Assembly: GCA_030694975.1 (NCBI GenBank)
Contig: JAUYTU010000030.1
Coordinates: 1-24,000 of the forward strand
Length of the DNA: 24,000 nucleotides
Source: Erysipelotrichaceae bacterium
Lineage (GTDB): Bacteria; Bacillota_I; Bacilli_A; Erysipelotrichales; Erysipelotrichaceae
Reading direction: 5' to 3'
Shown here: positions 162 to 18,462 of the stretch, in pieces
How positions within the stretch are numbered: position 1 is the first letter of the stretch
How the letters are laid out: each line of letters opens with the position of its first letter
Position numbers and translations under genes: made by a program
Notes under the pieces: model-generated
Seen by the model: only the letters and a program-made list of their open reading frames with translations
Database searches by the model: none
What the model was told of the DNA's origin: nothing

Positions 162-632
162 TTACATCCAATCTTTACACACATCCACCCATAAGGTCGT
201 CTGTGCGTATTTTTCGAGTTCTGCCGATGTAAGTTCGATTGCGGAATATGCACTTCCACAGGCCGGAAACACTGTTTCAAAGCGCTTCATAGAAATGTCC
301 AAAGCAACGGTCAGGGGCTCTTTGAGGGCGAAGGGACAGACACCCCCCACCGGATGTCCGGTAAAACGTAGCGCTTCTTCCAAGGAGAGCATTCGTGCTT
401 TCAAGCCAAACTGCTGTTTAAATTTGGCGTTGTCGACTTTACTGTCACCTGCTGTTACTAACAGAAGTGCAGATTCGTTGTATGCAAAGGACAACGTCTT
501 GGCAATGCGTTTGGGTTCGGTATTCAATGCCTGCGCCGCCAACAGTACCGTTGCGCTGGAAATCTCAAACTCCAGCACTTTGTCAGTGATACCGTAGGAT
601 TCGAAATAAGATTTAACCTCTTTGATACCCAT
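162..632 (-). CDS. ybaK: YbaK/EbsC-family aminoacyl-tRNA deacylase (Cys-tRNA(Pro)/prolyl-tRNA editing domain protein)
   Basis: 156-aa ORF with the typical family length and motifs (KTL...LVTAGDSKVD..K, TGHPVGGVCPF). An aaggggg RBS lies 4-5 nt upstream of the ATG at 632. Confidence 0.85.
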   Translation of the reverse strand: MGIKEVKSYFESYGITDKVLEFEISSATVLLAAQALNTEPKRIAKTLSFAYNESALLLVTAGDSKVDNAKFKQQFGLKARMLSLEEALRFTGHPVGGVCPFALKEPLTVALDISMKRFETVFPACGSAYSAIELTSAELEKYAQTTLWVDVCKDWM

Positions 633-705
633 AAAACCCCCTTAAAATATTGAAGTAAGTGTAGCACTGTGGAGGAAATTTTACAATATTCTTTAACCGA
701 TACAG

Positions 706-736
706 TTGTCTTTGATGGATAAAAATGTGTTAAAAT
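706..736 (+). promoter_or_regulatory. Candidate promoter of the eamA-aldolase-mtnK-mtnA-GNAT operon
   Basis: Extended -10 element TGtTAAAAT (728-736). The -35-like ttgtct (706-711) sits at a long 19-nt spacing. A 6-1-6 palindrome agagtt-t-aactct (745-757) lies just downstream. Confidence 0.3.
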
Positions 737-770
737 TGATTGTAAGAGTTTAACTCTGATATTTAAATAA

Positions 771-1655
771 ATGAATCGAGAAATTATGAAGAAATATCTA
801 CCGATTTTATCAGCTGCACTGGCAGCACTGCTTTATGCCTTAAGCACACCTTTTCTAAAGATGACACTCGTCGTTGTTGAACCGGTGTTTTTGGCTGGTT
901 TACTTTACTTCGGGGCGGGCATCGGAATGTTGATTATGTGTATGTTTACTAAGGAAAGTCTGCCGTTTGCGAAAAAGCAGTATCCATATGTGATAGGTAT
1001 GATTCTGTTGGATATCCTAGCACCGATTTTGCTTTTGTATGGATTGCGTTTGAGCGTAGCGGAGAATGCAGCGCTGTTGAATAATTTCGAAATCGTTGCT
1101 ACATCCGTCTTTGCGTTTTTTATCTTTAAAGAGAAAATCAGTATTCGACTGAGATATGCGATCATCATCATCACCATTGCCAGTATTCTTCTGTCTGTTG
1201 AAAATCTTCAGTCAAGTTTAAGTTTCTCATTCGGATCCGTTTTAATTATATTGGCAACCATGGTGTGGGGTTTAGAAAACAATTTTACCCGCAACTTATC
1301 GGATAATTCGCCGATTAAAATTACCGCTATCAAAGGTATATTCTCGGGATTAAGTTCCATCTTACTTGCTTATTTTATTAATCAGATTATCTTTGACGTA
1401 ACTTTGATTTTGCTTTCCATGTTACTCGGATTTGTCACCTACGGACTAAGCATCATGTTTTACATATTTGCACAACGCAGTTTAGGTGCGGCGAAGACCA
1501 GTTCGTTTTACGCATTGGCACCATTTCTGGGTGCCGGTATATCGATCTTGATTTTCAATGATGTTCCGCAACTCAATTTCTATGCAGCGCTGGTTTTGAT
1601 GATTTTGGGAGTTGTATTAATAACGAAAGACACACTTGAAGGAGGGCAATCATGA
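771..1655 (+). CDS. EamA/DMT-superfamily transporter (10-TM drug/metabolite transporter)
   Basis: 294-aa highly hydrophobic ORF with two EamA-like halves. Its stop overlaps the next start (ATGA at 1652-1655). An alternative start is the ATG at 786. Confidence 0.85.
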   Translation: MNREIMKKYLPILSAALAALLYALSTPFLKMTLVVVEPVFLAGLLYFGAGIGMLIMCMFTKESLPFAKKQYPYVIGMILLDILAPILLLYGLRLSVAENAALLNNFEIVATSVFAFFIFKEKISIRLRYAIIIITIASILLSVENLQSSLSFSFGSVLIILATMVWGLENNFTRNLSDNSPIKITAIKGIFSGLSSILLAYFINQIIFDVTLILLSMLLGFVTYGLSIMFYIFAQRSLGAAKTSSFYALAPFLGAGISILIFNDVPQLNFYAALVLMILGVVLITKDTLEGGQS

Positions 1656-2389
1656 ATCAAGAAGAGAAAGCCGCGCGGACGTGGATTTGCGAAGTCGGTC
1701 GCCGCTTGTATTTGCGCAATTATGTCGCGGCCAACGATGGAAATATTTCAGTTCGATTAACGGATGGCACAATCATCGCAACCCCAACCAATGTCTCAAA
1801 GGGCTATATGAATGAAGATATGCTAGTCAAAATGAGCTTGGATGGAAGTTTGATTTCTGAAGGGTTAAGACCTTCTTCAGAAATTAAGATGCATCTGCGT
1901 GTATTTAATGAAAACGAAGAAGTGTTTGGAATTGTCCATGCGCATCCGCCGATTTCAACATCCTTTGCGATTGCGGGTATCCAATTGGATCAACCGACAT
2001 CACCCGAAGCGGTGGTTAATCTCGGAGTGATACCGATAGCCCCCTATGCCACACCGGGGACCGGTGAAGTTGCTGATTCGATAGCAGCTTTTTGTAAGAC
2101 ACATACGGCTGTGTTGCTGGCCAATCATGGCGCGTTGACATGGGGAAGAGATTTGACGGAAGCTTACTTTCGCATGGAATCATTAGAGCATGTGGCCCAT
2201 ATGACGATGATCGCGAACTTTGTGATGGGTAAGGTCAATGTGTTAAGTCAGTCTCAGGTGGATCGACTCTCACGGATGCGTGAGAATATGGATTTGATTC
2301 AAGCCACGATGCCAAAGGGAGCAGAAACGGAGTCAAACTTGAGTGATTTCGGTTCAATGTCAACGTTGAAGAGTGAGGGGAAATTATGA
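1652..2389 (+). CDS. Class II aldolase/adducin-family protein. It is either a 5-(methylthio/deoxy)ribulose-1-phosphate aldolase (Ald2/DrdA-like) or an MtnB-like dehydratase.
   Basis: 245 aa with the class II aldolase metal-site pattern (SSEIKMH, VHAHPP, LANHGALTWG). RBS gaaggaggg precedes it. It is translationally coupled on both sides to eamA and mtnK. Confidence 0.8.
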   Translation: MNQEEKAARTWICEVGRRLYLRNYVAANDGNISVRLTDGTIIATPTNVSKGYMNEDMLVKMSLDGSLISEGLRPSSEIKMHLRVFNENEEVFGIVHAHPPISTSFAIAGIQLDQPTSPEAVVNLGVIPIAPYATPGTGEVADSIAAFCKTHTAVLLANHGALTWGRDLTEAYFRMESLEHVAHMTMIANFVMGKVNVLSQSQVDRLSRMRENMDLIQATMPKGAETESNLSDFGSMSTLKSEGKL

Positions 2390-3609
2390 AATTTACAACG
2401 TATTTTACGATGAATGAAGAAGAGGCCGCAATGTATGCCAGTGAGAAGTTAGGATATCTTTTTGGTGATGAGTTTCATTTAACGTGCAAGGAAATCGGCG
2501 ATGGAAATCTGAACTACATTTTCAGAGTCGTAGATGAGATTTCGGGTCATTCAATCATTATCAAACAATCCGGTCCGGTCGCTCGGATATCGGATGAATT
2601 TAAACTGTCTCCCGATCGCAATCGAATTGAGTATGAAATATTAAAACTTGAAGATAAATTAGCACCCGGATTGGTACCGAAGGTATACGGCTATGACTCC
2701 ATGATGAACTGTACCGTCATGGACGATTTGTCGGATCATCAGATCATGCGAAAAGCGTTGATGGAATTTAAGACTTTTCCGCGTTTTGCCCAAGACATCT
2801 CGGACTTTATGGTCAATACGTTATTATTAACGACAGATGTCGTATTAGAACATAAGGTTAAGAAGGATTTGGTTAAAAATTTCATTAATCCCGAGTTGTG
2901 CGAAATTACGGAAGATTTGGTGTATACCGAACCGTTCAGTGATTATAAGCATCGAAATGATGTTTTTGAACGTAATAAAGATTGGGTCAGCGAACATATT
3001 TACAATTCGGTTGAGTTACGGTTGGAAACAGCCAAACTCAAATTTGAGTTTATGAATCATGCGCAAGCCTTGGTGCATGGCGATTTACATACCGGTTCCA
3101 TCTTTGTCAAAGAAGATTCGACCAAAGTCATCGATCCGGAGTTTGCATTTTTCGGTCCGATTGGCTATGACGTTGGAAATGTCATGGCGAACTTGATCTT
3201 TGCGTGGGTTCACAGTGATGCTCATCAGCAGGGTGAGCACAAACAATGGTTGGAAGATACTATCGTCGAAACGCTTGATCTGTTTATTGAGAAGTTCAGT
3301 CTTGCATGGGATCGCCATGTTTCGGAATTCAGCGCTAAAACACCGGGATTCAAAGAGTACTATTTAGCTACGGTCTTGCGTGATACGGCCGGTGTGACCG
3401 GTTTGGAACTTTGTCGCAGGATCATCGGATTGGCTCATGTGAAGGATATTACTTCGTTAGGTGGTAATGTTCGCGTGCGGGCAGAGCGGATCTGTCTGAG
3501 TGGAGCTATTGATTTTATTCTTAAGCGAGATAAATTTACGTGTGGTGAGGACTATTTGATTACCATGCAAGCAGCTATGTCTAAATTTGCGAGGGAAAAC
3601 GATGAATGA
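2386..3609 (+). CDS. mtnK: S-methyl-5-thioribose kinase (or 5-deoxyribose kinase)
   Basis: 407 aa carrying the hallmark MtnK N-terminal motif [11 protein letters not shown] and the kinase catalytic region [10 protein letters not shown]...[13 protein letters not shown] overlap with the upstream gene. Confidence 0.93.
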
Positions 3610-4669
3610 TGTACTTGATTTTGTGTCAGTTCGTTTGGATGATGATAACAGTGAACTGATCATATTGGATCAAAGCAAGTTGCCCAATGAACTGATTTAT
3701 CATCACTATCATACGAAGGAAGAAATTTTCAAGGCTATCACCGGGTTGGAAGTCCGTGGGGCTCCGGCGATTGGTATCGCAGCGGCCTATGGTTTGTATC
3801 TGGATGCTAAGAAGCAAGAAGATTTAAAATCTGAAGAGTTTATGGCTAATTTTAAACGAACCAAAGACTATTTGGCATCATCACGTCCAACCGCAGTGAA
3901 TTTGTTTTGGGCATTGAATCGGATGGAACGTTGTCTATTCGATCATAAGGAAAAATCAGTGGTGGAGATCATCGATTTATTGAGGATTGAATCTGAAAAT
4001 ATCCGAAGTGAAGATGAAGCGGTGTGCTACTCTATTGGGGAGCATGCCTTGACGTTACTAAAACCAAAAATGGGTTTGCTTACCCATTGCAACGCCGGAA
4101 CACTGGCAACTGCCAAATACGGCACTGCGCTTGCGCCGATGTATTTGGGGCACAAACGGGGGTATGACTTTCGGGTATATGCGGATGAGACCCGGCCGCT
4201 TTTACAAGGTGCCCGTTTGACTGCGTGGGAATTACACGAAGCGGGCATCGATGTTACGTTGATTTGTGATAATATGGCTTCCATTGTTATGAAGAAAGGT
4301 CTAATCGATGCGGTGTTGGTCGGTTGTGATCGGGTTGCGGCCAACGGTGATACGGCCAATAAAATCGGTACTTCGGGAGTGGCTATTTTAGCAAAGCGTT
4401 ACGGCATCCCGTTTTATGTGTGTGCGCCGATGTCCACCCTTGATATTTCGAGAAGTTGTGGTGATGATATTGAAATTGAATTGCGCAAAGGCGAAGAAAT
4501 CACGACGACATGGTATCAGAAGCCGATGGCTCCATCGGGAGTTAAAACTTACAATCCGGCATTTGATGTCACGGATGCGGATTTGATTACGGCAATCATC
4601 ACGGAGAAGGGGATTGTATATCCTCCATATGATCTGAATATAAAAAGACTGTTTGAAGGAGGTCAGTAG
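3602..4669 (+). CDS. mtnA: S-methyl-5-thioribose-1-phosphate isomerase (eIF-2B alpha/beta/delta-like family)
   Basis: MtnA motifs are present ([43 protein letters not shown]). I place the start at the ATG at 3602, with RBS gaggga 5 nt upstream and an 8-nt overlap with the mtnK stop, rather than at the TTG at 3587 given in the ORF track. Confidence 0.93.
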
Positions 4670-5230
4670 GTGAATCACATAGGAACTATGGAACTTTCGA
4701 CGGAGCGGCTGTTATTAAGGAAAATCCGCATCGAAGATGATCGCGATATGTTTGAGCAGTGGGCGAGTGATCCACAAGTTACGAAATATTTAACGTGGGG
4801 TGCGCATCGAAGTATTGAGGATACCCGTCAAATTATTGCATTGTGGCTAAAGGATCAAGACGAACCCCATGTTTACCGTTGGGTAATTGAATTAAAGTCG
4901 ATTGGAAAAGTGATTGGAACCATCGATTTGGTCAGTGTTGACACCCGGCACAGGTGCGGTGTCTTTGGCTATTGTCTTTCCGCCCAATATTGGAACCAGG
5001 GCATTGCAAGTGAAGCACTGAAAGTTATGTTGACATATTTATTTGTTGAGGCAGGTTTTCATCGCATTGAAGCATCACATCTGATTGAAAATCCGGCTTC
5101 CGGCAAGGTTATGCTTAAGTGTGGCATGAAACTGGAGGGGAATAAGCGAAAAAAGTTTTTGGGACATGACGGAGAATTCCATGATTTGCTTGTTTATGGC
5201 CTGTTAGAAGAAGAATTTTTGATTGATTGA
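4670..5230 (+). CDS. GNAT-family N-acetyltransferase (RimJ/RimL-like, Acetyltransf_3 type)
   Basis: 186 aa beginning TERLLLR, with acetyl-CoA-binding region YWNQGIASEA and the later motif HRIEA......N.AS..V..K.G. The GTG start falls directly after the mtnA stop and has a ggagg RBS 7 nt upstream. An alternative start is the ATG at 4688. Confidence 0.85.
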   Translation: MNHIGTMELSTERLLLRKIRIEDDRDMFEQWASDPQVTKYLTWGAHRSIEDTRQIIALWLKDQDEPHVYRWVIELKSIGKVIGTIDLVSVDTRHRCGVFGYCLSAQYWNQGIASEALKVMLTYLFVEAGFHRIEASHLIENPASGKVMLKCGMKLEGNKRKKFLGHDGEFHDLLVYGLLEEEFLID

Positions 5231-5250
5231 CTGCCGAAAGGCAGTTTTTT
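5230..5250 (+). terminator. Rho-independent terminator closing the eamA-to-GNAT operon
   Basis: Stem actgcc / ggcagt with a gaaa tetraloop (5230-5245) followed by a run of T. It lies directly after the stop codon. Confidence 0.8.
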
Positions 5251-5313
5251 AGTGAAAAAGCATTAAATTTGTTAAAAAAGGTAAAAATATTTAATAAATT
5301 GTATGCAATACTA

Positions 5314-5342
5314 TTGTAAACAATAAATAAGCATGATATATT
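5314..5342 (+). promoter_or_regulatory. Candidate sigma-A promoter of the fasciclin gene
   Basis: ttgtaa (5314-5319), 17-nt spacer, tatatt (5337-5342). A short hairpin gtcac-agca-gtgac (5355-5368) lies in the predicted leader. Confidence 0.35.
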
Positions 5343-5381
5343 GTATACAACTTAGTCACAGCAGTGACCCAGGAGGAAATT

Positions 5382-6833
5382 ATGAAGAAGATTATTAGCC
5401 TAATCTTAGCTCTCTTCCTATTTGCAGGCATAAATGTACTCGCAGTAGAACAAGACATTGTAGAAATCGCTTCAGGTAATGAAGACTTCAGTATTTTAGT
5501 AACCGCTTTGCAAGAAGCAGAACTTGTAGAAACACTTAAAGGTACTGGACCTTTCACAGTATTTGCACCGACCGATGCAGCATTCGCAGCTTTACTTGCT
5601 GATTTGGGTGTAAGTGCTGAGTACTTATTAAGTCATCCTCAACTTTCTGAAATTCTTACGTACCATGTAGTAGCTGGTAAAGTAATGAGCACAGACTTGA
5701 CCGATGGCATGACACCGGCAACCGTCAATGGCGAAACGATCACGATCGATTTGGATGGTGGCGTTAAAGTTAACAGCTCCAATGTAACAACCGCTGACAT
5801 CGAAGCTTCCAACGGTGTTATCCACATTATCGACAAAGTATTAATTCCTTCCGATTTTGAACTGTATCCGACCGTTGTAGACATCGCTGTAAACAATACC
5901 GGCTTCTCAACATTGGTAGCCGCATTGACAAAAGCAAATTTAGTAAGCACATTGCAAGGTGCTGGCCCGTTCACAGTATTTGCTCCGACGGATGCCGCAT
6001 TTGCCGCTCTATTAGCTGACTTAGGCGTTAGCGCTGAATACTTATTAAATCACCCTCAACTTTCTGAGATCCTTACGTACCATGTAGTTGCTGGTAAAGT
6101 ATTGAGCACAGATTTAACCGATGGTATGACACCGGCAACTGTCAATGGTGAAACGATTACTGTTGATTTGGATGGTGGCGTCATGATCAATAATGCAAAC
6201 GTAACTGCTGCTGACTTAGAAGCCGGCAATGGCGTTGTCCATGTAATTGACAAAGTGTTAGTACCAGCCGACTTCGTATTATACCCGACCGTTGTAGACA
6301 TCGCACTCAACAACCCTAATTTCTCAATTCTAGTAGCTGCATTGCAAAAAGCCGATTTGGTTGATGCATTGTTAGGTGATGGTCCGTTTACAGTATTCGC
6401 ACCGACCAACGCAGCCTTTGAAGATTTGCTTGAAGCATTAGGTATTACCGCAGAAGAATTACTGGCACAACCGGATTTAGCTAAAGTATTGCTGTTCCAC
6501 GTTGTTTCCGGAAAAGTTATGAGCACAGATTTAAGTGATGGTTTAATGGCTCCGACATTGAATGGCGAATCCGTAACCTTCGATTTGGACGGCGGCGTTA
6601 AAGTTAACGGCGCAATGGTTACAGTTGCTGATCTTGAAGCTGGCAACGGGGTTATCCACGTTATCGATAAAGTACTCATTCCTGCAGATTTCACGTATGT
6701 AGCACAAGAAACAGAAGGCGGATTGCCGAATACAGCTGACAATAACGCACTTAGCTTCGCATTGATCGCTTTGATGGCTGGCTTAGGTTTGGTTGTTGTA
6801 AGTTCGAAAAAACGCTTAGCAAAACAATCGTAA
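5382..6833 (+). CDS. Secreted, sortase-anchored surface protein with three tandem FAS1 (fasciclin) domains
   Basis: The ATG at 5382 has a perfect aggagg RBS 5 nt upstream. The track start at 5364 is a GTG inside the leader. Signal peptide MKKIISLILALFLFAGINVLA. Three FAS1 units carry GPFTVFAPT.AAF and NGV.H.IDKVL motifs. The C-terminal sorting signal is LPNTA (6723-6737), a hydrophobic helix and the tail KKRLAKQS. Confidence 0.9.
   Translation: MKKIISLILALFLFAGINVLAVEQDIVEIASGNEDFSILVTALQEAELVETLKGTGPFTVFAPTDAAFAALLADLGVSAEYLLSHPQLSEILTYHVVAGKVMSTDLTDGMTPATVNGETITIDLDGGVKVNSSNVTTADIEASNGVIHIIDKVLIPSDFELYPTVVDIAVNNTGFSTLVAALTKANLVSTLQGAGPFTVFAPTDAAFAALLADLGVSAEYLLNHPQLSEILTYHVVAGKVLSTDLTDGMTPATVNGETITVDLDGGVMINNANVTAADLEAGNGVVHVIDKVLVPADFVLYPTVVDIALNNPNFSILVAALQKADLVDALLGDGPFTVFAPTNAAFEDLLEALGITAEELLAQPDLAKVLLFHVVSGKVMSTDLSDGLMAPTLNGESVTFDLDGGVKVNGAMVTVADLEAGNGVIHVIDKVLIPADFTYVAQETEGGLPNTADNNALSFALIALMAGLGLVVVSSKKRLAKQS
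5451..6701 (+). repeat. Three in-frame tandem 417-bp (139-codon) repeats encoding the FAS1 domains
   Basis: Units span 5451-5867, 5868-6284 and 6285-6701. Units 1 and 2 are near-identical in protein and differ mostly at synonymous sites. Unit 3 is more diverged. Confidence 0.9.
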
Positions 6834-6838
6834 TTTGA

Positions 6839-6868
6839 CAAAGGGCATCAGACGATGCCCTTTGTTTA
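6839..6868 (+). terminator. Rho-independent terminator of the fasciclin gene
   Basis: Perfect 11-bp stem caaagggcatc (6839-6849) / gatgccctttg (6854-6864) with loop agac, followed by tttaaaa. Confidence 0.85.
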
Positions 6869-6887
6869 AAAGAAAGAAGGTATATAA

Positions 6888-7424
6888 ATGGCTATTGAAA
6901 GCGCAAAGTTTAAATTAATTAAAAAAGAAAAGGATTTTGAAGTCCGGGTGTATGATGAAATTTCTTTAGCCATGAGTAAGGAGAGCGATTTTCGCGGATA
7001 CAGCGGATTCAATGAAGCCTTTGATTACATCAGCGGATCTAACGATCAAAACCGTAAGATATCGATGACAACTCCGGTCATTAACGAGTTGGATCAAGAT
7101 TCGATGACGATGGCGTTTGTGATGCCTTCGGAAATACCGTTTGAAAGTCTGCCTAAACCGAAGAGTCAACGGCTTTCGATGATAAAGAAGGAGAATATGG
7201 TTTTTGCCTCCATTCGTTTTTCCGGAACGGTCTGTCCGACCCTACTAGCAAAAAAGAAAAAAGAACTCACGGAATGGATGTCTGCCAATCATTTGATCCC
7301 AGGATCAGTTGTCTGGTTGGCACGGTACAATCCACCGTTTATTCCTGGTTTTCTAAAGCATAATGAAGTGCTTATTTCGATTGAAAATAGTACGATTTTA
7401 ACAGATATTTCCGATCGTATTTAA
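6888..7424 (+). CDS. SOUL heme-binding-protein family protein
   Basis: 178 aa with the family pattern: FEVRVY near the N-terminus, ISMTTPV, MAFVMP, FSG, and ARYNPPF...HNEVLI near the C-terminus. RBS gaagg. The last 53 nt overlap the convergent gene. Confidence 0.8.
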   Translation: MAIESAKFKLIKKEKDFEVRVYDEISLAMSKESDFRGYSGFNEAFDYISGSNDQNRKISMTTPVINELDQDSMTMAFVMPSEIPFESLPKPKSQRLSMIKKENMVFASIRFSGTVCPTLLAKKKKELTEWMSANHLIPGSVVWLARYNPPFIPGFLKHNEVLISIENSTILTDISDRI

Positions 7425-7800
7425 CAGATAAGACTTGTAAATAAGATTTTAGCTCAGATAAAGACTCACTCCCGGACGAATAATCCTGGAGTTTTTTTTC
7501 AAAACTCGCTTTTTCATCGTCGCTTGCCAACTTTTTAAAATAACCCCAGACATGTTGCAGTGCATTGACGGCATTTCCTGTGTTCTCTTCTATAGTAAGT
7601 GCGAGTTCAATCAATCGTAAAAACTCATCTCTGGAATACCCGACTTTCACGGTTAACAACTGACGGATTTCGTTGTATAGATTAGGGCTTTTCTCAAGCA
7701 CTACATATTTAAGTTTGCTCCACTCTTGTTCTATTTTTTTAATGGGGACATTTTTCTTTTGAAGATTTGCATGCACTTGATTCAATATTTCGTTATTCAT
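7372..7800 (-). CDS. DUF1722 (YbgA-like) domain protein
   Basis: Shows the DUF1722 pattern: NALQHVWGYFKK, EK..F...L..Y..G, and YL..S.YF near the C-terminus. The start is uncertain. I prefer the ATG at 7800 (MNNEIL...). The track ORF extends to the ATG at 7851, which has no visible RBS. Confidence 0.65.
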   Translation of the reverse strand: MNNEILNQVHANLQKKNVPIKKIEQEWSKLKYVVLEKSPNLYNEIRQLLTVKVGYSRDEFLRLIELALTIEENTGNAVNALQHVWGYFKKLASDDEKASFEKKLQDYSSGSESLSELKSYLQVLSVKYDRKYLLKSYYFQSK

Positions 7801-7894
7801 ATAAACTCGCTTTCGGTAAGAGATTTCTCTTTCGATTATCATAACATACATTTGAATGTTTGTAAGTCAGTAAAAACCTCAGATTGACAAGGTG

Positions 7895-7903
7895 TGATAT
7901 AAT
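7895..7903 (+). promoter_or_regulatory. Extended -10 promoter element upstream of the helicase gene
   Basis: TGaTATAAT at 7895-7903. A perfect ttgaca at 7884-7889 is only 8 nt upstream and is therefore mis-spaced for a -35. Confidence 0.4.
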
Positions 7904-7924
7904 ACGTGAGTAAATGAAGAAAGT

Positions 7925-9379
7925 ATGAGAAACCGTATGAAATTAACCTTTGAAAGCTTTGGATTAAGTGAGCAAATCCAACGTTCTATAGAACTGCTCG
8001 GATATCAACAACCAACGGAAGTGCAATCAGTCCTTATTGAATCCATGATTGAAGGAAATGACGTTGTAATTCAATCACAGACGGGAAGCGGTAAAACGGC
8101 AGCATTTGCGATTCCGATCTGCGATAATATTGATTTTGATCAAAACAAACCCCAAGCACTGATCATTGCTCCTACTCGCGAACTCGCTTTACAAATTAAG
8201 GAAGATGTTTTTCATATCGGCCGCTTCAAACGTGTTAAAGTTTCGGTACTTTTCGGTAAGTTCCCTTATGAAGTACAAGTCAAGGAGTTAAAACAAAAAA
8301 CGCACATCGTCGTTGGGACTCCCGGACGTGTGCTCGATCATATTAAACGTGGTACATTGGATGTTTCTGAAATTAAGTATTTGATTATTGATGAAGCCGA
8401 TGAAATGTTTAAGTTGGGCTTTCTGATCGAAATGAATCAAATTATTAAGAAATTACCCGTGAAGCGACAGACCGTTCTTCTTTCCGCAACCATTCCGGAT
8501 CAGATTCAGGATTTGATAGCTTTTGCGGTTAGAAATCCGAAATTTATCAAGATTGATGAGGAGAGCAATGTTCTCGATCGTATCACTCAATATAAATTAT
8601 CGGTGGTAGAACCAGCCAAGCTGCGTTTGACCCGTGAGATACTTATGACCTTACAGCCGGATAGCTGTATGATTTTCTGTAATCTTAAGGTAACCGTTGA
8701 TGATGTCTATGATTATTTCAAAGATATGAAATTTCCGATTCAGCGTTTGCATGGCGGTATGGAACAAAATGACCGTACGCAGATCATCAAGGACTTTAAA
8801 CAAGGCGGATTTCGGTTTTTAGTGGCAACCGATGTTGCGGCGCGGGGGTTGGATATTGATCAGGTGTCATTGATTATCAATTATGATATTCCGTTAGAAG
8901 CTGAAATCTATGTTCATCGAATCGGCCGAACAGGACGTTTTGATCAAATGGGCAAAGCGATTACGTTCTACACATCGAATCAAGGTCGTTTCTTGCGTAA
9001 CATCGAGGACTTTACGGAAGTACATATGGAAAATTTGGTGTTGCCGGATAAAGAGACGTTACAAAATGCACACATTGACAGTGCCCGTCAAATTCGTGAG
9101 AAGAAGATTGTTAAAAAAGTCAAAGGTGAGCAGCTCAATGAGGGTATCACAGCTCTTCAGATTCGGGCAGGGAAGCAATCCAAGATTCGCCCGACCGATA
9201 TCGTCGGTGCGATTTGTTCGATTGAAGGTGTGAGTGCACTGGATATCGGTGTAATCAATATCGGCGAGTTGTTCAGTGATGTAGAAATACTCAATGAAAA
9301 AGGGAATTTGGTTCTTGAACAATTACAACTTCTTCCGATGAAAGGGAAGATGAGAAAAGTAGTGAAAATAAAGAAATAG
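7925..9379 (+). CDS. dbpA: DEAD-box ATP-dependent RNA helicase with a C-terminal DbpA-type RNA-binding domain (DbpA/YxiN-like)
   Basis: Q motif (F..F.L......GY..PT.VQ), motif I SQTGSGKT, motif II DEAD, SAT, HRIGRTGR, and a C-terminal segment IRPTDIVGAI......IG.I typical of the DbpA domain. An alternative start is the ATG at 7937. Confidence 0.92.
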   Translation: MRNRMKLTFESFGLSEQIQRSIELLGYQQPTEVQSVLIESMIEGNDVVIQSQTGSGKTAAFAIPICDNIDFDQNKPQALIIAPTRELALQIKEDVFHIGRFKRVKVSVLFGKFPYEVQVKELKQKTHIVVGTPGRVLDHIKRGTLDVSEIKYLIIDEADEMFKLGFLIEMNQIIKKLPVKRQTVLLSATIPDQIQDLIAFAVRNPKFIKIDEESNVLDRITQYKLSVVEPAKLRLTREILMTLQPDSCMIFCNLKVTVDDVYDYFKDMKFPIQRLHGGMEQNDRTQIIKDFKQGGFRFLVATDVAARGLDIDQVSLIINYDIPLEAEIYVHRIGRTGRFDQMGKAITFYTSNQGRFLRNIEDFTEVHMENLVLPDKETLQNAHIDSARQIREKKIVKKVKGEQLNEGITALQIRAGKQSKIRPTDIVGAICSIEGVSALDIGVINIGELFSDVEILNEKGNLVLEQLQLLPMKGKMRKVVKIKK

Positions 9380-9398
9380 TGCGGGTGCACTATTTTTT
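9376..9398. terminator. Bidirectional terminator shared by the convergent helicase and patatin genes
   Basis: 7-bp stem atagtgc (9376-9382) / gcactat (9387-9393) with loop gggt. T-rich runs flank it on both strands: tttttt on + and ttctttatttt on -. Both stop codons lie inside or at the hairpin. Confidence 0.7.
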
Positions 9399-10175
9399 AA
9401 TTTTAGCTAAAAGTTTAGGAAGTTTGGGGTGACCCATAACTGAATAATAGCCGATTTTGTAGATCTGATCGAAATGACTGACATCAAGGATGTTAAATTC
9501 GCTTAAACCATGCGGTTCAATGAGGAGATTACATTTTCTTTTCATTTCTTTGCTCAATGTACTAATACTTAATTGGAAAGTGCGAACTCCGACATCGTGA
9601 AGATTTTCAATTTTCGATACCGGTCCGGTCGCCATCACATCCACAGCGATGATGATGTCACAATCTTCAAGCAAAGGCTTAATCGGCAGATTATCAAGGA
9701 CACCACCGTCAACATATTTTTGACCATTGATCTCTACCGGTGAAAAAAGTACGGGAATAGAAGAGGAAGCTATTACAGCATCAATGACATTTCCGGATTT
9801 CATATATTCAACTTCACCGGAATAGAGATTAGTCAAAGCAATGTAAAGTTTTTTGTTCATTTCACTAAAATCTTTTTTCTTGATTATTTCGTTGAGGGTT
9901 TTGCGCAGATTATCCAAATTCATCAGCCCGTCAACGGGTAAAATGATTTTCGCATAGTCGATGAATTTCTTATCTTTCATAACTTTGTAAATATCATCGG
10001 TGCTCAAACCACAAGCGTAAAGAGCCGCCGCGATTGATCCGGCGCTGGTGCCGGAAACGACTTGAATATCTACACCGAGTTCTTCAAGTGCTTTTAAAGC
10101 GCCTAAGTGAGCCACCCCGCGTGAACCGCCACCGCTAAGTGCGATTCCTACGACTTTCTTTTTTTTACCAAACAT
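9390..10175 (-). CDS. Patatin-like phospholipase (YlbK/RssA-like)
   Basis: 261 aa with oxyanion motif GGGSRG, nucleophile-elbow motif GTSAG and catalytic-Asp motif DGG. The aagagg RBS overlaps the mgsA stop. Confidence 0.9.
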   Translation of the reverse strand: MFGKKKKVVGIALSGGGSRGVAHLGALKALEELGVDIQVVSGTSAGSIAAALYACGLSTDDIYKVMKDKKFIDYAKIILPVDGLMNLDNLRKTLNEIIKKKDFSEMNKKLYIALTNLYSGEVEYMKSGNVIDAVIASSSIPVLFSPVEINGQKYVDGGVLDNLPIKPLLEDCDIIIAVDVMATGPVSKIENLHDVGVRTFQLSISTLSKEMKRKCNLLIEPHGLSEFNILDVSHFDQIYKIGYYSVMGHPKLPKLLAKIKK

Positions 10176-10187
10176 GTACGTACCTCT

Positions 10188-10571
10188 TTAATCTCGGTGC
10201 GTCAAAGCAAACAGCATCAGATTTGCTGTGGATGGATTGCTTGCGGTTGGAATATCATACAGAACTGCGATACGCAACAACGCTTTCACATCAGGATCGT
10301 GCGGCTGTGAAGTCAGCGGATCCCAAAAGAAAATCAACATATCGATTTCTTTTTGAGCGATAGCTGCACCGACTTGCTGATCGCCGCCCAGCGGTCCGGA
10401 CATGTAAGCTTTGACATTTAGACCGGTAGCTTCAGCGATGCGTTTTGAAGTCGTTCCGGTACCACACAAATGATGTAGGGCAAGTTCTTCTTTATGGGAT
10501 TGTACCCACTTAACTAAATCTGGTTTGCGGTTGTCATGGGCGATGAGTGCAATCGTCATTTGTTTTTTCAT
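10188..10571 (-). CDS. mgsA: Methylglyoxal synthase
   Basis: 127 aa with IALIAHD..K, L.GTGTT, SGPLGGDQQ.GA and FWDPL...PHD.DV.AL.R, which closely match canonical MgsA. Confidence 0.95.
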   Translation of the reverse strand: MKKQMTIALIAHDNRKPDLVKWVQSHKEELALHHLCGTGTTSKRIAEATGLNVKAYMSGPLGGDQQVGAAIAQKEIDMLIFFWDPLTSQPHDPDVKALLRIAVLYDIPTASNPSTANLMLFALTHRD

Positions 10572-10594
10572 ATAATACCCCCGATTTCAAGTTA

Positions 10595-10623
10595 ATTGTA
10601 TCATAAAAGCCGATGTCTTTCGA
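10595..10623 (-). promoter_or_regulatory. Candidate promoter of mgsA-patatin, overlapping the heliorhodopsin terminator
   Basis: On the - strand: tcgaaa, 17-nt spacer, extended -10 TGaTACAAT (plus-strand coordinates 10595-10603). Confidence 0.3.
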
Positions 10624-10631
10624 CACCGGCT
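10604..10631 (-). terminator. Rho-independent terminator of the heliorhodopsin gene
   Basis: On the - strand: agccggtgtc-gaaa-gacatcggct (10-bp stem with one G-U pair) followed by tttt. A smaller hairpin acgaatc-tttt-gattcgt (10642-10659) precedes it. Confidence 0.7.
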
Positions 10632-10660
10632 TATCTATATCAACGAATCAAAAGATTCGT

Positions 10661-11440
10661 TTATGGTTGCATTGCACCAAACAATACTAACCAAGCGAGA
10701 ATGGATTTAGCGGCTAAACTCAGTACGATATAGGTACGTTCGCCATACAGATAATCTTTCCATTTACCGATGCCTTTGTATTGAAGGATCATGTTAATTG
10801 GGAAGGTATTGAAAGCGACGAAGTAAGTTCCGACAATCGCCCAGACAAACCATGGGATCATATCGAAGTTTCCGGTTCCGAACATATACAGGAAGATGGC
10901 GATCCAAGGTGCTAATCCGGCAAGACTTCCCCAGATAAACGGTCCCCAATTGACTTTTTTCTTTTCAGTTCCGGCATTGATTAATTCCATATCAAGACCG
11001 AATAAATTCATCGAAGCGTTGACAATGAAGATTAAGATCAGCGATACGATATCGTAAATACCGAATAAAGTTGCGATCAGTACGATCATGATGGAGGAAC
11101 TCAAAGCATATTCGAACCAGCGGAACTTATTGATGCCCAATTTAAGATCATCTTCATATTTTTTTGCGTTAAGCACGATCAATCCATGAGCGACGGCTGA
11201 GATTAACAGAAAGGATGAGACCAGAATTCCGAAGGGAAGGGCGAAAAGCTCACGGCTCACAACTTCCAGCGACATGGTTTCGAAATTGAAGGTTTGATAG
11301 AATTGAATAATGGTCGGTTGAAATTCACTTATTTTTTGGATGACGGTCGTTGCCAGAAATAACATGACCAATCCTTGGACCAGGTGGAAACCACCCATGA
11401 TTAAGTTAAAGCGTTTTAATTTTGTGTAGGTATCTTTCAT
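10661..11440 (-). CDS. Heliorhodopsin (seven-TM retinal-binding protein, HeR family)
   Basis: 259 aa with 7 predicted TM helices. Blocks match my recollection of HeR 48C12: FHLVQG (His19), AVAHG (His85), FRWFEYALSSSIMIVLIA (counterion Glu110, codon 11111-11113), NASMNLFG, and QYKGIGKW.DYLYGERTYIVLSLAAKSILAW (Schiff-base Lys245, codon 10706-10708). There is a long TM1-TM2 loop, as in HeRs. RBS aggaga. Confidence 0.88.
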   Translation of the reverse strand: MKDTYTKLKRFNLIMGGFHLVQGLVMLFLATTVIQKISEFQPTIIQFYQTFNFETMSLEVVSRELFALPFGILVSSFLLISAVAHGLIVLNAKKYEDDLKLGINKFRWFEYALSSSIMIVLIATLFGIYDIVSLILIFIVNASMNLFGLDMELINAGTEKKKVNWGPFIWGSLAGLAPWIAIFLYMFGTGNFDMIPWFVWAIVGTYFVAFNTFPINMILQYKGIGKWKDYLYGERTYIVLSLAAKSILAWLVLFGAMQP

Positions 11441-11466
11441 TTGAAAATATCTCCTTTTACAATCAT

Positions 11467-11495
11467 AGTATACGCCTAATAAAAATATAATGCAA
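11467..11495 (-). promoter_or_regulatory. Candidate sigma-A promoter of the heliorhodopsin gene
   Basis: On the - strand: ttgcat (plus 11490-11495), exactly 17 nt of spacer, tatact (plus 11467-11472). It lies about 27 nt upstream of the ATG. The palindrome gcaatt-a-aattgc (11492-11504) overlaps the -35. Confidence 0.4.
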
Positions 11496-11610
11496 TTAAA
11501 TTGCGTAAAATATAATAATCTATTTTTATGAGTTTTTTAGTTTCCGCTTTCGGTCAAAGTTCCTGTGAAATTTGTCAATTATGATATCATTGAAATAGTC
11601 GAGGTGAGTT

Positions 11611-13074
11611 ATGGTTAACAAGAAAATCAACATGGAACGTATCGGGTTTCAAATCGATAACAGTTATACTGAGTTGCCCAAAGAACTATATTCTGTGATA
11701 GAAACTAAAGATGTATCGAATCCATCGTTCGTTATGTTTAATGAATCATTAGCCGAATCCTTAGGACTGGATTTCTCAATGATCTCTGATTCCGAAAAAG
11801 CCGAAATATTTTGCGGAAACATTCGGCTGCCGAATTCAATTCCAATAGCACAGGCTTATGGAGGGCATCAGTTCGGTCGTTTTACATTTTTAGGCGATGG
11901 ACGTGCACTGTTGTTAGGCGAACACATCACACCGGATGGTAGCCGGGTTGACATTCAGTTGAAGGGTTCAGGACCGACACCATATTCACGTGGCGGCGAT
12001 GGACTTGCGGCTTTAGGACCGATGTTACGAGAATTTCTGATCAGTGAGGCGATGGCAGCATTAAACATCCCAACAACTCGCAGTCTGGCGGTTGTATTGA
12101 CAAATCAAAGGGTACACAGACAAGTAGATTTGGATGGTGCGGTTTTAACACGAATCGCAAAAAGTCATATTCGCGTCGGTACTTTTCAGTATGCTTTGGC
12201 TCAGGGTGGAGTTGAAACATTGAGAGCACTGGCGGATTACACCATTCACCGACATTTTCCAAATATCAACGATGAAAACCGCTATTTAGAATTATTGAAT
12301 GAAGTCATCAAGGCACAAGCGAAGTTAATTGCACAATGGCAGCTTGTCGGGTTTATTCACGGGGTCATGAATACCGATAATATGGCGATTAGTGGCGAGA
12401 CTATTGATTATGGTCCGTGTGCGTGGCTAGACACCTATGAGCCGAAAACAGTGTATAGTTCGATTGACTATTCCGGTCGATATGCATTTATTAATCAACC
12501 GGCAATCGCCGCATGGAATCTGGCGAGATTTGCGGAAACATTACTTCCTCTTCTTGAGAAAGATCAGTTTTTAGCTCAGAAAATGGCACAGGATGCGGTT
12601 GAAACGTTTTTGCCATTATTTAAAGATGAGTGGTTAAGTGGTATGAGAAAGAAATTAGGACTTTTCAGTGAGGAAGTTGAGGATGAAGGATTAATTGATG
12701 AGCTTTTAAATATCATGCATAAACAAAAACTCGATTATCATCTTACGTTTGTCAATCTGACGACAAATATTGACGCGTATGAAAAAAAGTTTGAATTTGC
12801 TGAGTGGCTGATTAAGTATCGTATTCGCAGGTCAAGGCAGCGTGAATCACTCGATGAATCAATTGTATTGATGAAAAGTGTCAATCCGGCCATCGTTCCA
12901 CGAAATCATCTTGTTGAGGAAGCTCTAAGCCATGCGACTGAACATGATCTGAGTAAGTTTAATCATTTGCTTGAACTGTTAAAAACTCCGTTTCAATATT
13001 CAAGTGAGCAATTGCAAGCCAATCAACCTGCATCAGCATCCTCCGTTCCGTATAAAACTTTTTGTGGAACATAA
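11611..13074 (+). CDS. selO: Protein adenylyltransferase SelO (YdiU family pseudokinase-fold AMPylase/UMPylase)
   Basis: 487 aa with AQAYGGHQFG.F..LGDGRA.LLGE, the catalytic-loop equivalent HGVMNTDNM, DYGP, and a C-terminal ...TFCGT with Cys third from the end. RBS gaggtga. Confidence 0.93.
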   Translation: MVNKKINMERIGFQIDNSYTELPKELYSVIETKDVSNPSFVMFNESLAESLGLDFSMISDSEKAEIFCGNIRLPNSIPIAQAYGGHQFGRFTFLGDGRALLLGEHITPDGSRVDIQLKGSGPTPYSRGGDGLAALGPMLREFLISEAMAALNIPTTRSLAVVLTNQRVHRQVDLDGAVLTRIAKSHIRVGTFQYALAQGGVETLRALADYTIHRHFPNINDENRYLELLNEVIKAQAKLIAQWQLVGFIHGVMNTDNMAISGETIDYGPCAWLDTYEPKTVYSSIDYSGRYAFINQPAIAAWNLARFAETLLPLLEKDQFLAQKMAQDAVETFLPLFKDEWLSGMRKKLGLFSEEVEDEGLIDELLNIMHKQKLDYHLTFVNLTTNIDAYEKKFEFAEWLIKYRIRRSRQRESLDESIVLMKSVNPAIVPRNHLVEEALSHATEHDLSKFNHLLELLKTPFQYSSEQLQANQPASASSVPYKTFCGT

Positions 13075-14175: not shown

Positions 14176-14245
14176 AAGGATTATCCTTAATTATTGGTGT
14201 ATGTTAAAATAGTACATATGACTAAATACGATGAGTGAGGTACGT

Positions 14246-14545
14246 ATGAATTTTCCATGGTTCTACCATATATTGATTATTACGGTTATATTAACTTTCT
14301 TGCTTTTTATTAAATTCAATAAGGAACTTGGCATGTGGGGAAGAGGTTTTTGGGTAGTGTTATTGCTTGCTGATATTTATTTGTACGTACGGATGATTTT
14401 TGCTCAATGGTTTCCTGTTTCAGGAAGTTGGGATGATCTGGTCTATGGACTATTTTTCGCATTTGCTTCATACGCTCTGTTAACCGCGATGGTAACTACA
14501 GGATTGTATATGATGTACAAACGCAAGCAAAGCAATAAAAGATAA
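14246..14545 (+). CDS. Small hypothetical membrane protein (about 3 TM helices)
   Basis: ORF with three hydrophobic segments and no recognisable family. The ATG at 14246 has a gtgagg RBS 5 nt upstream. The track start at 14231 lacks one. Confidence 0.5.
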   Translation: MNFPWFYHILIITVILTFLLFIKFNKELGMWGRGFWVVLLLADIYLYVRMIFAQWFPVSGSWDDLVYGLFFAFASYALLTAMVTTGLYMMYKRKQSNKR

Positions 14546-15645: not shown

Positions 15646-16275
15646 GTGAATATTAAAATTTCCGAACAAAAACTCCACTTAATACTGCTTATCATCGGTC
15701 TTGTTGTTCTTGTGTGGTCATACATAGATCACAGACTGATGTTTGGTTGGATCTTATTAATTACGCCGATTATCATGGTTACCGCGCTGTTTATGTTAAC
15801 ATATAAGAAATTCACATTTACAACACTCGTATATGTGTTAGGATTTTTGTATGCCTGCCTTTTAATGGTAGGGGCCAAATACACATACACCTATGTGCCA
15901 CTTTTTGATTACATAAGTGACATCTTCGGATGGTCAAGAAATTACTATGATCGTGTAGCACATTTCGCTCAGGGTTTCGTTCCTTTTTTGGTATTCAGGG
16001 AGTACCTTCTTAGAAAAGGAATTTTAAATAAAGGCAAACTCAATAACCTGGTCATCCTAGCCATGGTCTTGGGATTTTCAGCTACCTGGGAACTGTTAGA
16101 ATATACAACATCCGAACTATCGGGGATGTCCCAATCGTTTGTTTTAGATATGCAAGGCGATATCTGGGATACACAACTCGATATGCTCTCGGCGCTGATT
16201 GGGGCCATAACCTCATCGATATTGTTAGGGAAGTATCATATGCAACTTATTATGAAGAAAATGAGCAATGAGTAA
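15646..16275 (+). CDS. DUF2238-family inner-membrane protein (E. coli YjdF-like)
   Basis: 209 aa and multi-TM. Blocks resemble my recollection of E. coli YjdF: MVGAKYTY..VPLF, RN.YD...HF.QGFVP.L..RE.L.R, GDIWDTQ.DM..AL.GA. GTG start with an aaggggg RBS 5 nt upstream. Confidence 0.7.
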   Translation: MNIKISEQKLHLILLIIGLVVLVWSYIDHRLMFGWILLITPIIMVTALFMLTYKKFTFTTLVYVLGFLYACLLMVGAKYTYTYVPLFDYISDIFGWSRNYYDRVAHFAQGFVPFLVFREYLLRKGILNKGKLNNLVILAMVLGFSATWELLEYTTSELSGMSQSFVLDMQGDIWDTQLDMLSALIGAITSSILLGKYHMQLIMKKMSNE

Positions 16276-17463: not shown

Positions 17464-18462
17464 ATGAGTAAATATAAGTTTATAAAAAAAGTGGAAGAGA
17501 TGATAAAAACAGAAGACATCGCAACATTACGATTGATTGGACCACTTCTCAAATATGTGCCTGGAAAATTTCAAGCGAAAGCCATGGAAAGTTCAAGCAA
17601 GGATAATCCTTATTTAGGTTTTGTTGTGGAACCGTACAGTACTTTCTTATTCTACGAACTAATTGATTTAGATTGGGCCAGAAAGTTAATTCCTGATGGT
17701 TTTGAATTAGAGAAGACGAATGTTTTTAACGATGGAGAAGCGAAATATTACATCGCTTTTGCATCTTTTAATGTAAAAACACCGGCGTTTGCGGGTACTC
17801 GATTGGAAGTCAATGTGATCGCCCGAAGTAAGAAAACAGGGCTTATCAGCTGGATCATTGTCGACTACGATACCAATACCTTAAGTCATGATTCTCTTAA
17901 AGGAGTTATCGATTACACCACAAAGCAGGCCGTTTTTACCACGGACTACGCGGGTAATATTATCGTAGATATAACCAACCCTGAGAAAAACAGGTCATTA
18001 GTTTTTGATTTGGACAGTAATGATGCTGAATATAAAATGTTGGAGAGAAATTTCTGGTTGGAGGGAAACTTATCGGTCGGATATGGCAGAGAAATATCAA
18101 GAAATTCTCCCAGTGCCTTTGCAATGAAGTTTGACCCTAGGGAAGTTGAGCAAGCGTATAGAGTAGACTTGAATAAGATAAGTTCAATAAAAAATACCTG
18201 GTATCCGGGATTGTTTAAAGATCAAGTTGATGAGGTCTTATATTTTCCCTTTGCCCAGCACTTTTTATCCGATAGCCCCGGCAGTTATAGTGAACATGAT
18301 AATGTAGATGAAATGATTAAAGAATTTGAGAATTTAGACTTGGATAATATACCGCCTTATTCCGTAGAATCGTTGAGAAAAATGATTAAGATAGGTATAG
18401 TGAGCAATTCAGTCTTTATAACAATACTGCTTTTGATAATATTGGCATTATTGATAAAATAG
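17464..18462 (+). CDS. Hypothetical tail-anchored protein. It may have an acetoacetate-decarboxylase-like (DUF2071-type) beta-cone fold.
   Basis: 332-aa ORF with a good RBS (aagggga, 6 nt) and a single C-terminal TM helix (IGIVSNSVFITILLLIILALLIK). The N-terminal half has a pattern reminiscent of DUF2071 (F.YE.....AR.L.P.GFEL......DG.A.....SF........G.RLEVNV.AR). That fold assignment is weak. Confidence 0.75.
   Translation: MSKYKFIKKVEEMIKTEDIATLRLIGPLLKYVPGKFQAKAMESSSKDNPYLGFVVEPYSTFLFYELIDLDWARKLIPDGFELEKTNVFNDGEAKYYIAFASFNVKTPAFAGTRLEVNVIARSKKTGLISWIIVDYDTNTLSHDSLKGVIDYTTKQAVFTTDYAGNIIVDITNPEKNRSLVFDLDSNDAEYKMLERNFWLEGNLSVGYGREISRNSPSAFAMKFDPREVEQAYRVDLNKISSIKNTWYPGLFKDQVDEVLYFPFAQHFLSDSPGSYSEHDNVDEMIKEFENLDLDNIPPYSVESLRKMIKIGIVSNSVFITILLLIILALLIK

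Follow-up and report, generated by a model that had tools for sequence, protein, structure and literature searches.

Heliorhodopsins (HeRs) are retinal proteins whose function in general is still unsettled, so that each well-described locus is one more data point. Three members have been studied together with a partner protein. AbHeR regulates glutamine synthetase (PMC9529153), and OcHeR regulates an ABC transporter (PMC11109279). TfHeR of Trichococcus flocculiformis DSM 2094 has its absorption maximum at 542 nm, completes its photocycle in less than a second to seconds, and is not an ion pump. Its partner is a class-II CPD photolyase; R162 and K227 are essential for the binding, and E97 contributes to it. 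Under green light TfHeR boosts DNA repair by this photolyase (PMC9769723). According to surveys, most HeR genes stand alone and their partners depend on the lineage (PMC11109279, PMC8612252). Described here is the HeR encoded in a stretch of 24,000 nucleotides from an Erysipelotrichaceae bacterium (contig JAUYTU010000030.1 of assembly GCA_030694975.1, positions 1 to 24,000), referred to as the window. Taken as a whole, it is best explained as a slow-cycling, non-transporting retinal photosensor whose partner is encoded at another place in the genome, a reading we hold to be reasonably probable. To the functions listed in an initial annotation of this DNA (glutamine synthetase, photolyase, and ion conduction), an ABC-transporter partner (PMC11109279) and a carotenoid antenna (10.1101/2025.11.27.691015) have to be added.

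The 259-residue protein had been assigned to the heliorhodopsins from its sequence, and both profile searches bear this out over the full match. The Pfam model PF18761 (Heliorhodopsin) is covered from position 1 to 242 of 242 with an E-value of 4.9e-92 and 308 bits against a cut-off of 26.7, and the NCBIfam equivalog NF038020 ("heliorhodopsin HeR") scores 279.9 bits against a cut-off of 100. Within the coding sequence, the list of open reading frames (ORFs) of the window holds no rival frame of at least 60 residues. The identical 259-residue protein is entered in NCBI nr as "heliorhodopsin HeR [Erysipelotrichaceae bacterium]," and the locus is also present on a Logan contig. A word-indexed search yields 4,941 homologues at E ≤ 1e-10, with more than 100 clusters at an identity of at least 78%; an exhaustive search of representatives at 50% identity yields 2,696 matches. 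The protein is an ordinary, previously annotated member of a large family and is not new; this family already counts thousands of members in metagenome-assembled genomes (MAGs) of Firmicutes and Chloroflexota. Literature searches found no paper on heliorhodopsin in combination with Erysipelotrichaceae and nothing relevant on heliorhodopsin in dark or anaerobic habitats.

Among the sequences of the PDB, phmmer matches the window protein to heliorhodopsins only, namely TaHeR (PDB 6IS6, E 8.8e-53), Cv06 (PDB 9VFC, E 4.1e-49), and 48C12 (PDB 6SU3, E 2.1e-45). The key residues of the family are H19, H85, N104, the counterion E110 in FRWFEYALSSS, and the Schiff-base lysine K245 in SLAAKSILAW; the numbers given earlier for the two histidines, the counterion, and the lysine are correct, and all stand in the motifs quoted with them. 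When equivalences are counted through the printed alignments, E110 corresponds to E107 of 48C12 and E108 of TaHeR, and K245 to K241 and K238, respectively, so that both line up with the known counterion and Schiff-base lysine as anticipated. H19 equals H23 in both proteins, H85 equals H80 of 48C12, and N104, S241, and N211 equal N101, S237, and N207 of 48C12. An alignment of the window HeR with 59 family representatives (32–52% identical) gives the same picture: lysine occupies the Schiff-base column in 53 of 60 sequences, glutamate the counterion column (motif R107-W108-F109-E110-Y111) in 56, and histidine the columns of H19 and H85 in 46 and 56, respectively. At all 27 positions checked, invariant R107 included, the window protein carries the majority residue.

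The AlphaFold2 model of the protein consists of seven helices (residues 2–39, 70–100, 107–125, 131–154, 165–189, 197–221, and 227–257). The long loop between the transmembrane helices TM1 and TM2, pointed out in the initial annotation, is present (residues 40–69) and is modeled as a β-hairpin with strands 43–52 and 57–67. In a Foldseek search of the PDB, the best ten matches are all heliorhodopsins with a TM-score of about 0.7, TaHeR and 48C12 being on top, and type-1 rhodopsins come next at about 0.4. With the loop limits taken from the model helices, 14 lysines and arginines fall in the N terminus and the intracellular loops ICL1–3 (45 residues) as opposed to one in the extracellular loops ECL1–3 (42 residues). 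By the positive-inside rule, this distribution of charge over the predicted loops fits the inverted topology of the family, in which the N terminus lies inside.

The closest studied relative is TfHeR, which is encoded on contig NZ_FOQC01000073.1 (locus L079) and is 76.8% identical to the window HeR over 259 aligned residues. TM3, TM6, and TM7 are almost identical, and the lysine, the glutamate, both histidines, and the fenestration residues are the same. This identity raises the question of whether the window HeR, like TfHeR, binds a class-II CPD photolyase, here encoded elsewhere, and promotes its repair of DNA in green light. Scanning one genome per species gave 281 loci with a relative of the window HeR, of which the best 80 were kept, and genes within 4 kb of HeR were clustered for 79 loci. 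At eight of these 79 (Trichococcus, a Carnobacteriaceae MAG, Peloplasma, and one Anaerolineaceae), a class-II photolyase gene is no more than 2.3 kb away from HeR, which speaks for such a link in the subclade. The binding residues are gone, however: R162 and K227 of TfHeR are replaced by T158 and G223, and E97 falls in a 3-residue deletion. Furthermore, TfHeR is encoded in a cluster with the photolyase and a DUF2238 protein, whereas the window HeR is monocistronic and no photolyase domain is encoded in the 24 kb. The TfHeR mechanism was rejected for the window HeR on these residues and on gene content, and its role as a photolyase helper should not be transferred. The partner is probably not a class-II photolyase bound in the manner of TfHeR, and we judge a photolyase-assisting role to be decidedly improbable.

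The photosensor reading can be laid out in steps that draw on the family and on TfHeR. The window HeR would sit in the membrane with its N terminus inside and would bind all-trans retinal through K245, E110 serving as the only counterion. It would absorb in the green, at about 540–550 nm, and run through a slow, roughly second-scale photocycle in which no ions are moved. Upon light sensing, the basic cytoplasmic face, formed by the N terminus and ICL1–3, would alter the contacts and the activity of a cytoplasmic or membrane partner; such regulation is inferred by analogy with the three studied HeRs (PMC9529153, PMC9769723, PMC11109279). Several points weigh against this reading. Retinal binding, color, kinetics, and the lack of transport are all extrapolations by homology. 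The partner is not encoded next to the HeR gene, and nothing in the locus hints at it. The AlphaFold2 model derives from a shallow alignment and is of moderate confidence (pLDDT 74, pTM 0.69). The −35 element of the gene is weak (three of six matches), and its promoter was missed by the consensus scan. The check for retinal-synthesis genes covers the 24 kb of the window. Lastly, the MAG names of several close relatives, as we read them, presumably denote groundwater or anaerobic reactors, habitats in which light sensing would be odd.

The source of the chromophore is connected to a lateral fenestration. Its residues are F168, S172, G175, F210, N211, and P214, which match Cv06, 48C12, and TaHeR and correspond to F212, C216, G219, F254, N255, and P258 of Cv06. 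An open fenestration, as predicted from these residues, is compatible with the uptake of external retinal and possibly with carotenoid binding. None of the 24 window ORFs scanned contains a crt, blh, photolyase, or glutamine synthetase domain; the earlier statement that the window holds neither a partner gene in an operon nor crt/blh is thus correct within these limits. Because no synthesis gene lies nearby, retinal is probably taken up from outside through the fenestration, an idea reportedly put forward with the structure of TaHeR. The same motif bears on the notion that the protein is a light-driven or light-gated ion transporter, as has been reported for viral heliorhodopsins. PMC9448325 describes proton transport by viral V2HeR3. 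However, the transporting viral subfamily is without the fenestration motif (preprint 10.1101/2025.11.27.691015), which is present here, and TfHeR, at 77% identity, pumps no ions (PMC9769723); transport is therefore regarded as highly unlikely.

The HeR gene is intact and under strong purifying selection, since its nonsynonymous divergence is low while synonymous sites are saturated. Against the orthologues of the five syntenic genomes (L002–L006), dN is 0.02–0.05 with dS near or at saturation, giving a dN/dS of about 0.006–0.03. In four of the five genome comparisons, HeR has the lowest dN of six local genes, below the DEAD-box helicase, MgsA, and ribokinase; in the comparison with L004, where dS is saturated, the estimate for PfkB is inseparable. 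A recent acquisition of the gene, as judged from composition, was rejected, as there is no signal in either measure: its GC content is 0.409 as compared with 0.405 for the window, and its GC3 of 0.49 is the window maximum but no outlier. Strong constraint in lineages whose MAGs, by our reading of their names, may stem from groundwater, anaerobic reactors, and sediments would suit a role largely independent of light (the binding of carotenoids or retinoids, for example, or a function in the membrane), or else light harvesting through an exogenous carotenoid antenna. These habitats are taken from names, though, and the protein has kept its Schiff-base lysine, counterion, and histidines, which is hard to explain without photochemistry. 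The fenestration or carotenoid-binding motif is complete, but carotenoid binding by HeRs rests on docking in the preprint that describes it (10.1101/2025.11.27.691015). All in all, such a role appears quite unlikely.

The initial annotation had described the HeR gene as a stand-alone transcription unit. This agrees with a promoter block and ribosome-binding site that are conserved upstream and with hairpins downstream that are kept through base changes (Table 1). The block, the −10 element, and the ribosome-binding site are conserved in six genomes, and the flanking intergenic sequence diverges. With 8 of 12 matches, the promoter site falls just short of what the consensus scan requires; hence, the call rests on conservation. 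A palindrome within the block, GCAATTTAATTGC, is invariant in the window and in L002–L004 and degenerate in L005 and L006. The motif is found neither in the rest of the window nor upstream of HeR outside its own clade. It may be a candidate operator for some regulator; as a cross-phylum operator, it was rejected because it is confined to the window's own clade. In L002, the sequence directly 5′ of the promoter block is unrelated to that of the window, a sign of an insertion or rearrangement precisely where the promoter begins to be conserved.

At the 3′ end, two hairpins follow one another. The stem-loop at the stop codon (7–8 bp) varies in sequence among the six genomes, and three compensatory pairs preserve its pairing; it could be a transcript-stabilizing or translation-coupled element. 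The intrinsic terminator retains an 11-pair, GC-rich stem in all six genomes, with single-side variation (G-U, A-U, G-C) at one pair. Together, the 67-nt 3′ region, which includes the stop-codon stem-loop, folds at −28.2 kcal/mol (z = −6.5 relative to shuffles). An Rfam scan of the whole window returned no RNA family and, therefore, no riboswitch near HeR. A monocistronic HeR unit is well supported by these predicted elements, and some read-through into mgsA may occur. The mgsA gene and the patatin gene, which starts 12 nt after mgsA, are probably cotranscribed.

Table 1. Coordinates of the heliorhodopsin gene, its predicted expression signals, and further features of the window
Feature	Position	Strand	Remark
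HeR coding sequence	10661..11440	−	ATG start, 259 aa, stop included
HeR promoter and leader (predicted)	11446..11514	−	conservation across six related upstream regions
Conserved upstream block TATATTTTACGCAATTTAATTGCAT	11514-11490	−	contains −35-like element and palindrome
Perfect 6+1+6 palindrome GCAATTTAATTGC	11504-11492	−	overlaps HeR −35
−35-like element TTGCAT	11495-11490	−	followed by 17-nt spacer to −10
−10 element TATACT	11472-11467	−	TATAAT in relatives
HeR ribosome-binding site AAAAGGAG	11458-11451	−	
Stem-loop ACGAATC-TTTT-GATTCGT	10642..10661	−	begins at final base of HeR stop codon
HeR intrinsic terminator AAGCCGGTGTC-GAAA-GACATCGGCTT, then T-run	10603..10632	−	
mgsA promoter-like site TCGAAA-17-TACAAT with TG (extended −10)	10623-10595		overlaps HeR terminator
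Methylglyoxal synthase (mgsA)	10188..10571	−	downstream neighbor, 90 bp from HeR
Patatin-like phospholipase	9390..10175	−	second gene of mgsA unit
Bidirectional terminator	9371-9398		at patatin gene
SelO promoter-like site	11572-11599		
SelO/YdiU-family protein adenylyltransferase	11611..13074	+	divergent; intergenic region of 170 bp common with HeR
DUF2238 membrane protein ("Wok" lipocone family)	15646..16275	+	4.2 kb from HeR
Apparent methionine-salvage cluster	1652-4669	+	MtnB-, MtnK-, and MtnA-like
Surface protein with fasciclin domains	5364-6833	+	489 aa
ORF without Pfam/NCBIfam match	14231-14545	+	104 aa
ORF without Pfam/NCBIfam match	17464-18462	+	332 aa

The neighbors had been named as SelO on the divergent side and MgsA-patatin downstream on the HeR strand. 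These positions stand; a reading of SelO and MgsA as conserved partners does not. The window MgsA, patatin, SelO, ribokinase, DEAD helicase, DUF1722, and SOUL proteins were compared by BLAST with the ORFs of the 80 loci. MgsA, patatin, SelO, ribokinase, and the DbpA helicase recur near HeR only in the five closest genomes (HeR 92–96% identical), and at the other 74 loci (HeR 74–83% identical) the window neighbors are absent except for scattered, distant DEAD-box and SOUL-family homologues. In L002, the closest relative in the genome collection (HeR 96% identical), 9.4 kb separate SelO from HeR (region of about 600-10000), as compared with 171 bp in the window. SelO, MgsA, and patatin represent an inherited, lineage-specific gene order and not conserved partners, because their synteny is limited to the five closest genomes; for the same reason, the conserved neighborhood was rejected as a clue to the partner, and SelO and MgsA should not be taken as such.

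A light and stress module of HeR with MgsA and patatin downstream and SelO upstream, for instance for light-controlled methylglyoxal production or protein AMPylation, has to be considered in this context. All six genomes of the clade have HeR, mgsA, and patatin side by side, and in five of them SelO shares the intergenic region. There is also a thematic match, as other HeR genes have been linked to genes for glyoxalase, glutaredoxin, and oxidative stress (PMC8612252). The gene order is nevertheless that of one narrow clade, is missing from the 72 further HeR loci examined, and resembles inherited order, SelO is displaced in L002, and a conserved terminator and a separate mgsA promoter-like site lie between HeR and mgsA. 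The module is therefore considered unlikely. The locus adds little by itself: its protein is already annotated, no operon partner makes the function testable, and its neighbors are lineage-specific. Across the 79 loci, the recurrent HeR-adjacent families are generic (response regulators at 18 loci, histidine kinases at 11, and ABC ATPases at 11), and such variable neighbors agree with the published surveys (PMC11109279, PMC8612252).

One further gene deserves attention, namely that of the DUF2238 protein. This family is among ten recurrent operon partners of HeRs (PMC11109279), occurs in the operon of TfHeR (PMC9769723), and is predicted to be a membrane lipid-head-group enzyme family (PMC12419801). 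Through a HeR working with this protein, light could tune an activity that modifies lipids or the envelope. In the window, L003 (1599-2309), L005 (1796-2494), and L006 (1805-2437), DUF2238 is less than 8 kb away from HeR, and it adjoins HeR in four Trichococcus/Carnobacteriaceae loci (L050, L064, L067, and L079). In the window, however, it is on the opposite strand with four genes between; the distance grows to 7.5–7.7 kb in the three relatives, and the gene is absent within 10 kb in about 70 other subclade loci. The apparent link at the window locus is weak and could reflect decayed linkage or chance, and a functional pairing seems distinctly unlikely.

The HeR subclade to which the window protein belongs is 74–83% identical across Erysipelotrichaceae, Clostridia, Christensenellaceae, Dehalococcoidia, Anaerolineae, Acholeplasma/Izemoplasmatales, and Trichococcus (L007–L081). 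DEAD-box helicases near HeR in the same subclade are just 35–39% identical; the difference between the two suggests horizontal transfer or extreme constraint of HeR. Within the subclade, the cores of TM3, TM6, and TM7 are 90–97% conserved as opposed to 42–58% for the N terminus, ICL1, and ICL2, and this variability of the predicted cytoplasmic face fits lineage-specific partner contacts. A more far-reaching idea is that the subclade (Firmicutes, Chloroflexota, and wall-less Bacillota) has spread horizontally among low-light anaerobes and is strongly constrained for an undescribed role. This is a long shot; the protein might, for instance, depend on retinal or carotenoid to switch enzymes of the envelope or of stress responses, such as the DUF2238 "Wok" protein or the MgsA/SelO pair.

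The host of the window HeR reads as a monoderm: an LPXTG-anchored fasciclin protein is encoded in the window, and the identical protein and the syntenic contigs carry Erysipelotrichaceae or Firmicutes labels. Three fasciclin domains are present in this surface protein, and its LPXTG match is weak, narrowly missing the Pfam cut-off (E 9.6e-4). The claim that HeRs are found only in monoderm prokaryotes holds within Bacteria (PMC8612252) but not for the family overall, as PMC9448325 also places HeRs in archaea, unicellular eukaryotes, and giant viruses. Three HeR contigs carry diderm labels: L012 (HeR at 10001-10780 of an 861-kb scaffold, Fusobacteria), L048 (Desulfovibrionaceae, 8 kb), and L068 (Sumerlaeota, 24 kb). 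If correctly labeled, they would break the rule that HeRs are confined to monoderms, and the short contigs may have been binned wrongly; on the flanks of L012, Pfam annotation found no envelope marker either way. About 1.3 kb 3′ of HeR in L012 (12055-14077, plus strand), a Flavodoxin_5 gene and an overlapping gene of the flavin amine-oxidase family are located, a pair that could be HemG/HemY-like or CrtI-like.

The remaining genes of the window have ordinary housekeeping functions, as expected of a low-GC Gram-positive organism. They include those for a GNAT acetyltransferase, a DbpA-type helicase, a ribokinase, a GT2 glycosyltransferase, PsuG, a lipoate ligase, and a 2-oxoacid dehydrogenase cluster. 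The apparent methionine-salvage cluster consists of a class-II aldolase (MtnB-like), an APH-family kinase (MtnK-like), and an IF-2B isomerase (MtnA-like), whose reading frames overlap or nearly abut. The 104-residue ORF is conserved beside the GT2 glycosyltransferase in L001 and L003–L006.

Compared with the described types of HeR loci, the window fits neither of the two coupled arrangements. It is not an operon-coupled regulatory HeR as grouped by cotranscription with a partner (PMC11109279), because HeR is followed by a conserved terminator and preceded by a divergent gene. It is also not of the sensory type linked to two-component systems, in which a kinase or regulator lies within about 10 kb (PMC8612252): the window ORFs contain no histidine kinase or response regulator domain (HisKA, HATPase, Response_reg). 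AbHeR and OcHeR are cotranscribed with their partners, whereas the window HeR has neither glutamine synthetase nor an ABC transporter in its unit or in the window; they share with it the family and the same proposed logic of basic cytoplasmic loops that contact a partner. Among solved structures, TaHeR of the Thermoplasmatales archaeon SG8-52-1 (PDB 6IS6, 7CLJ, 7U55) is the best match, with 43% identity and a Foldseek TM-score of 0.70–0.73. It differs in its archaeal origin and in its loops, TM1-TM2 being seven and TM5-TM6 three residues longer in the window HeR. The founding actinobacterial 48C12 (PDB 6SU3, 6SU4, 6UH3) is about 40% identical; its Q213 is M217 and its A210 is P214 in the window HeR, the latter a proline as in Cv06, and the loops differ. 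TfHeR, which likewise stems from a monoderm Firmicutes host, stays closest, and its photochemistry, though not its partner, may reasonably be transferred to the window HeR because TM3, TM6, and TM7 are so highly conserved in the subclade.

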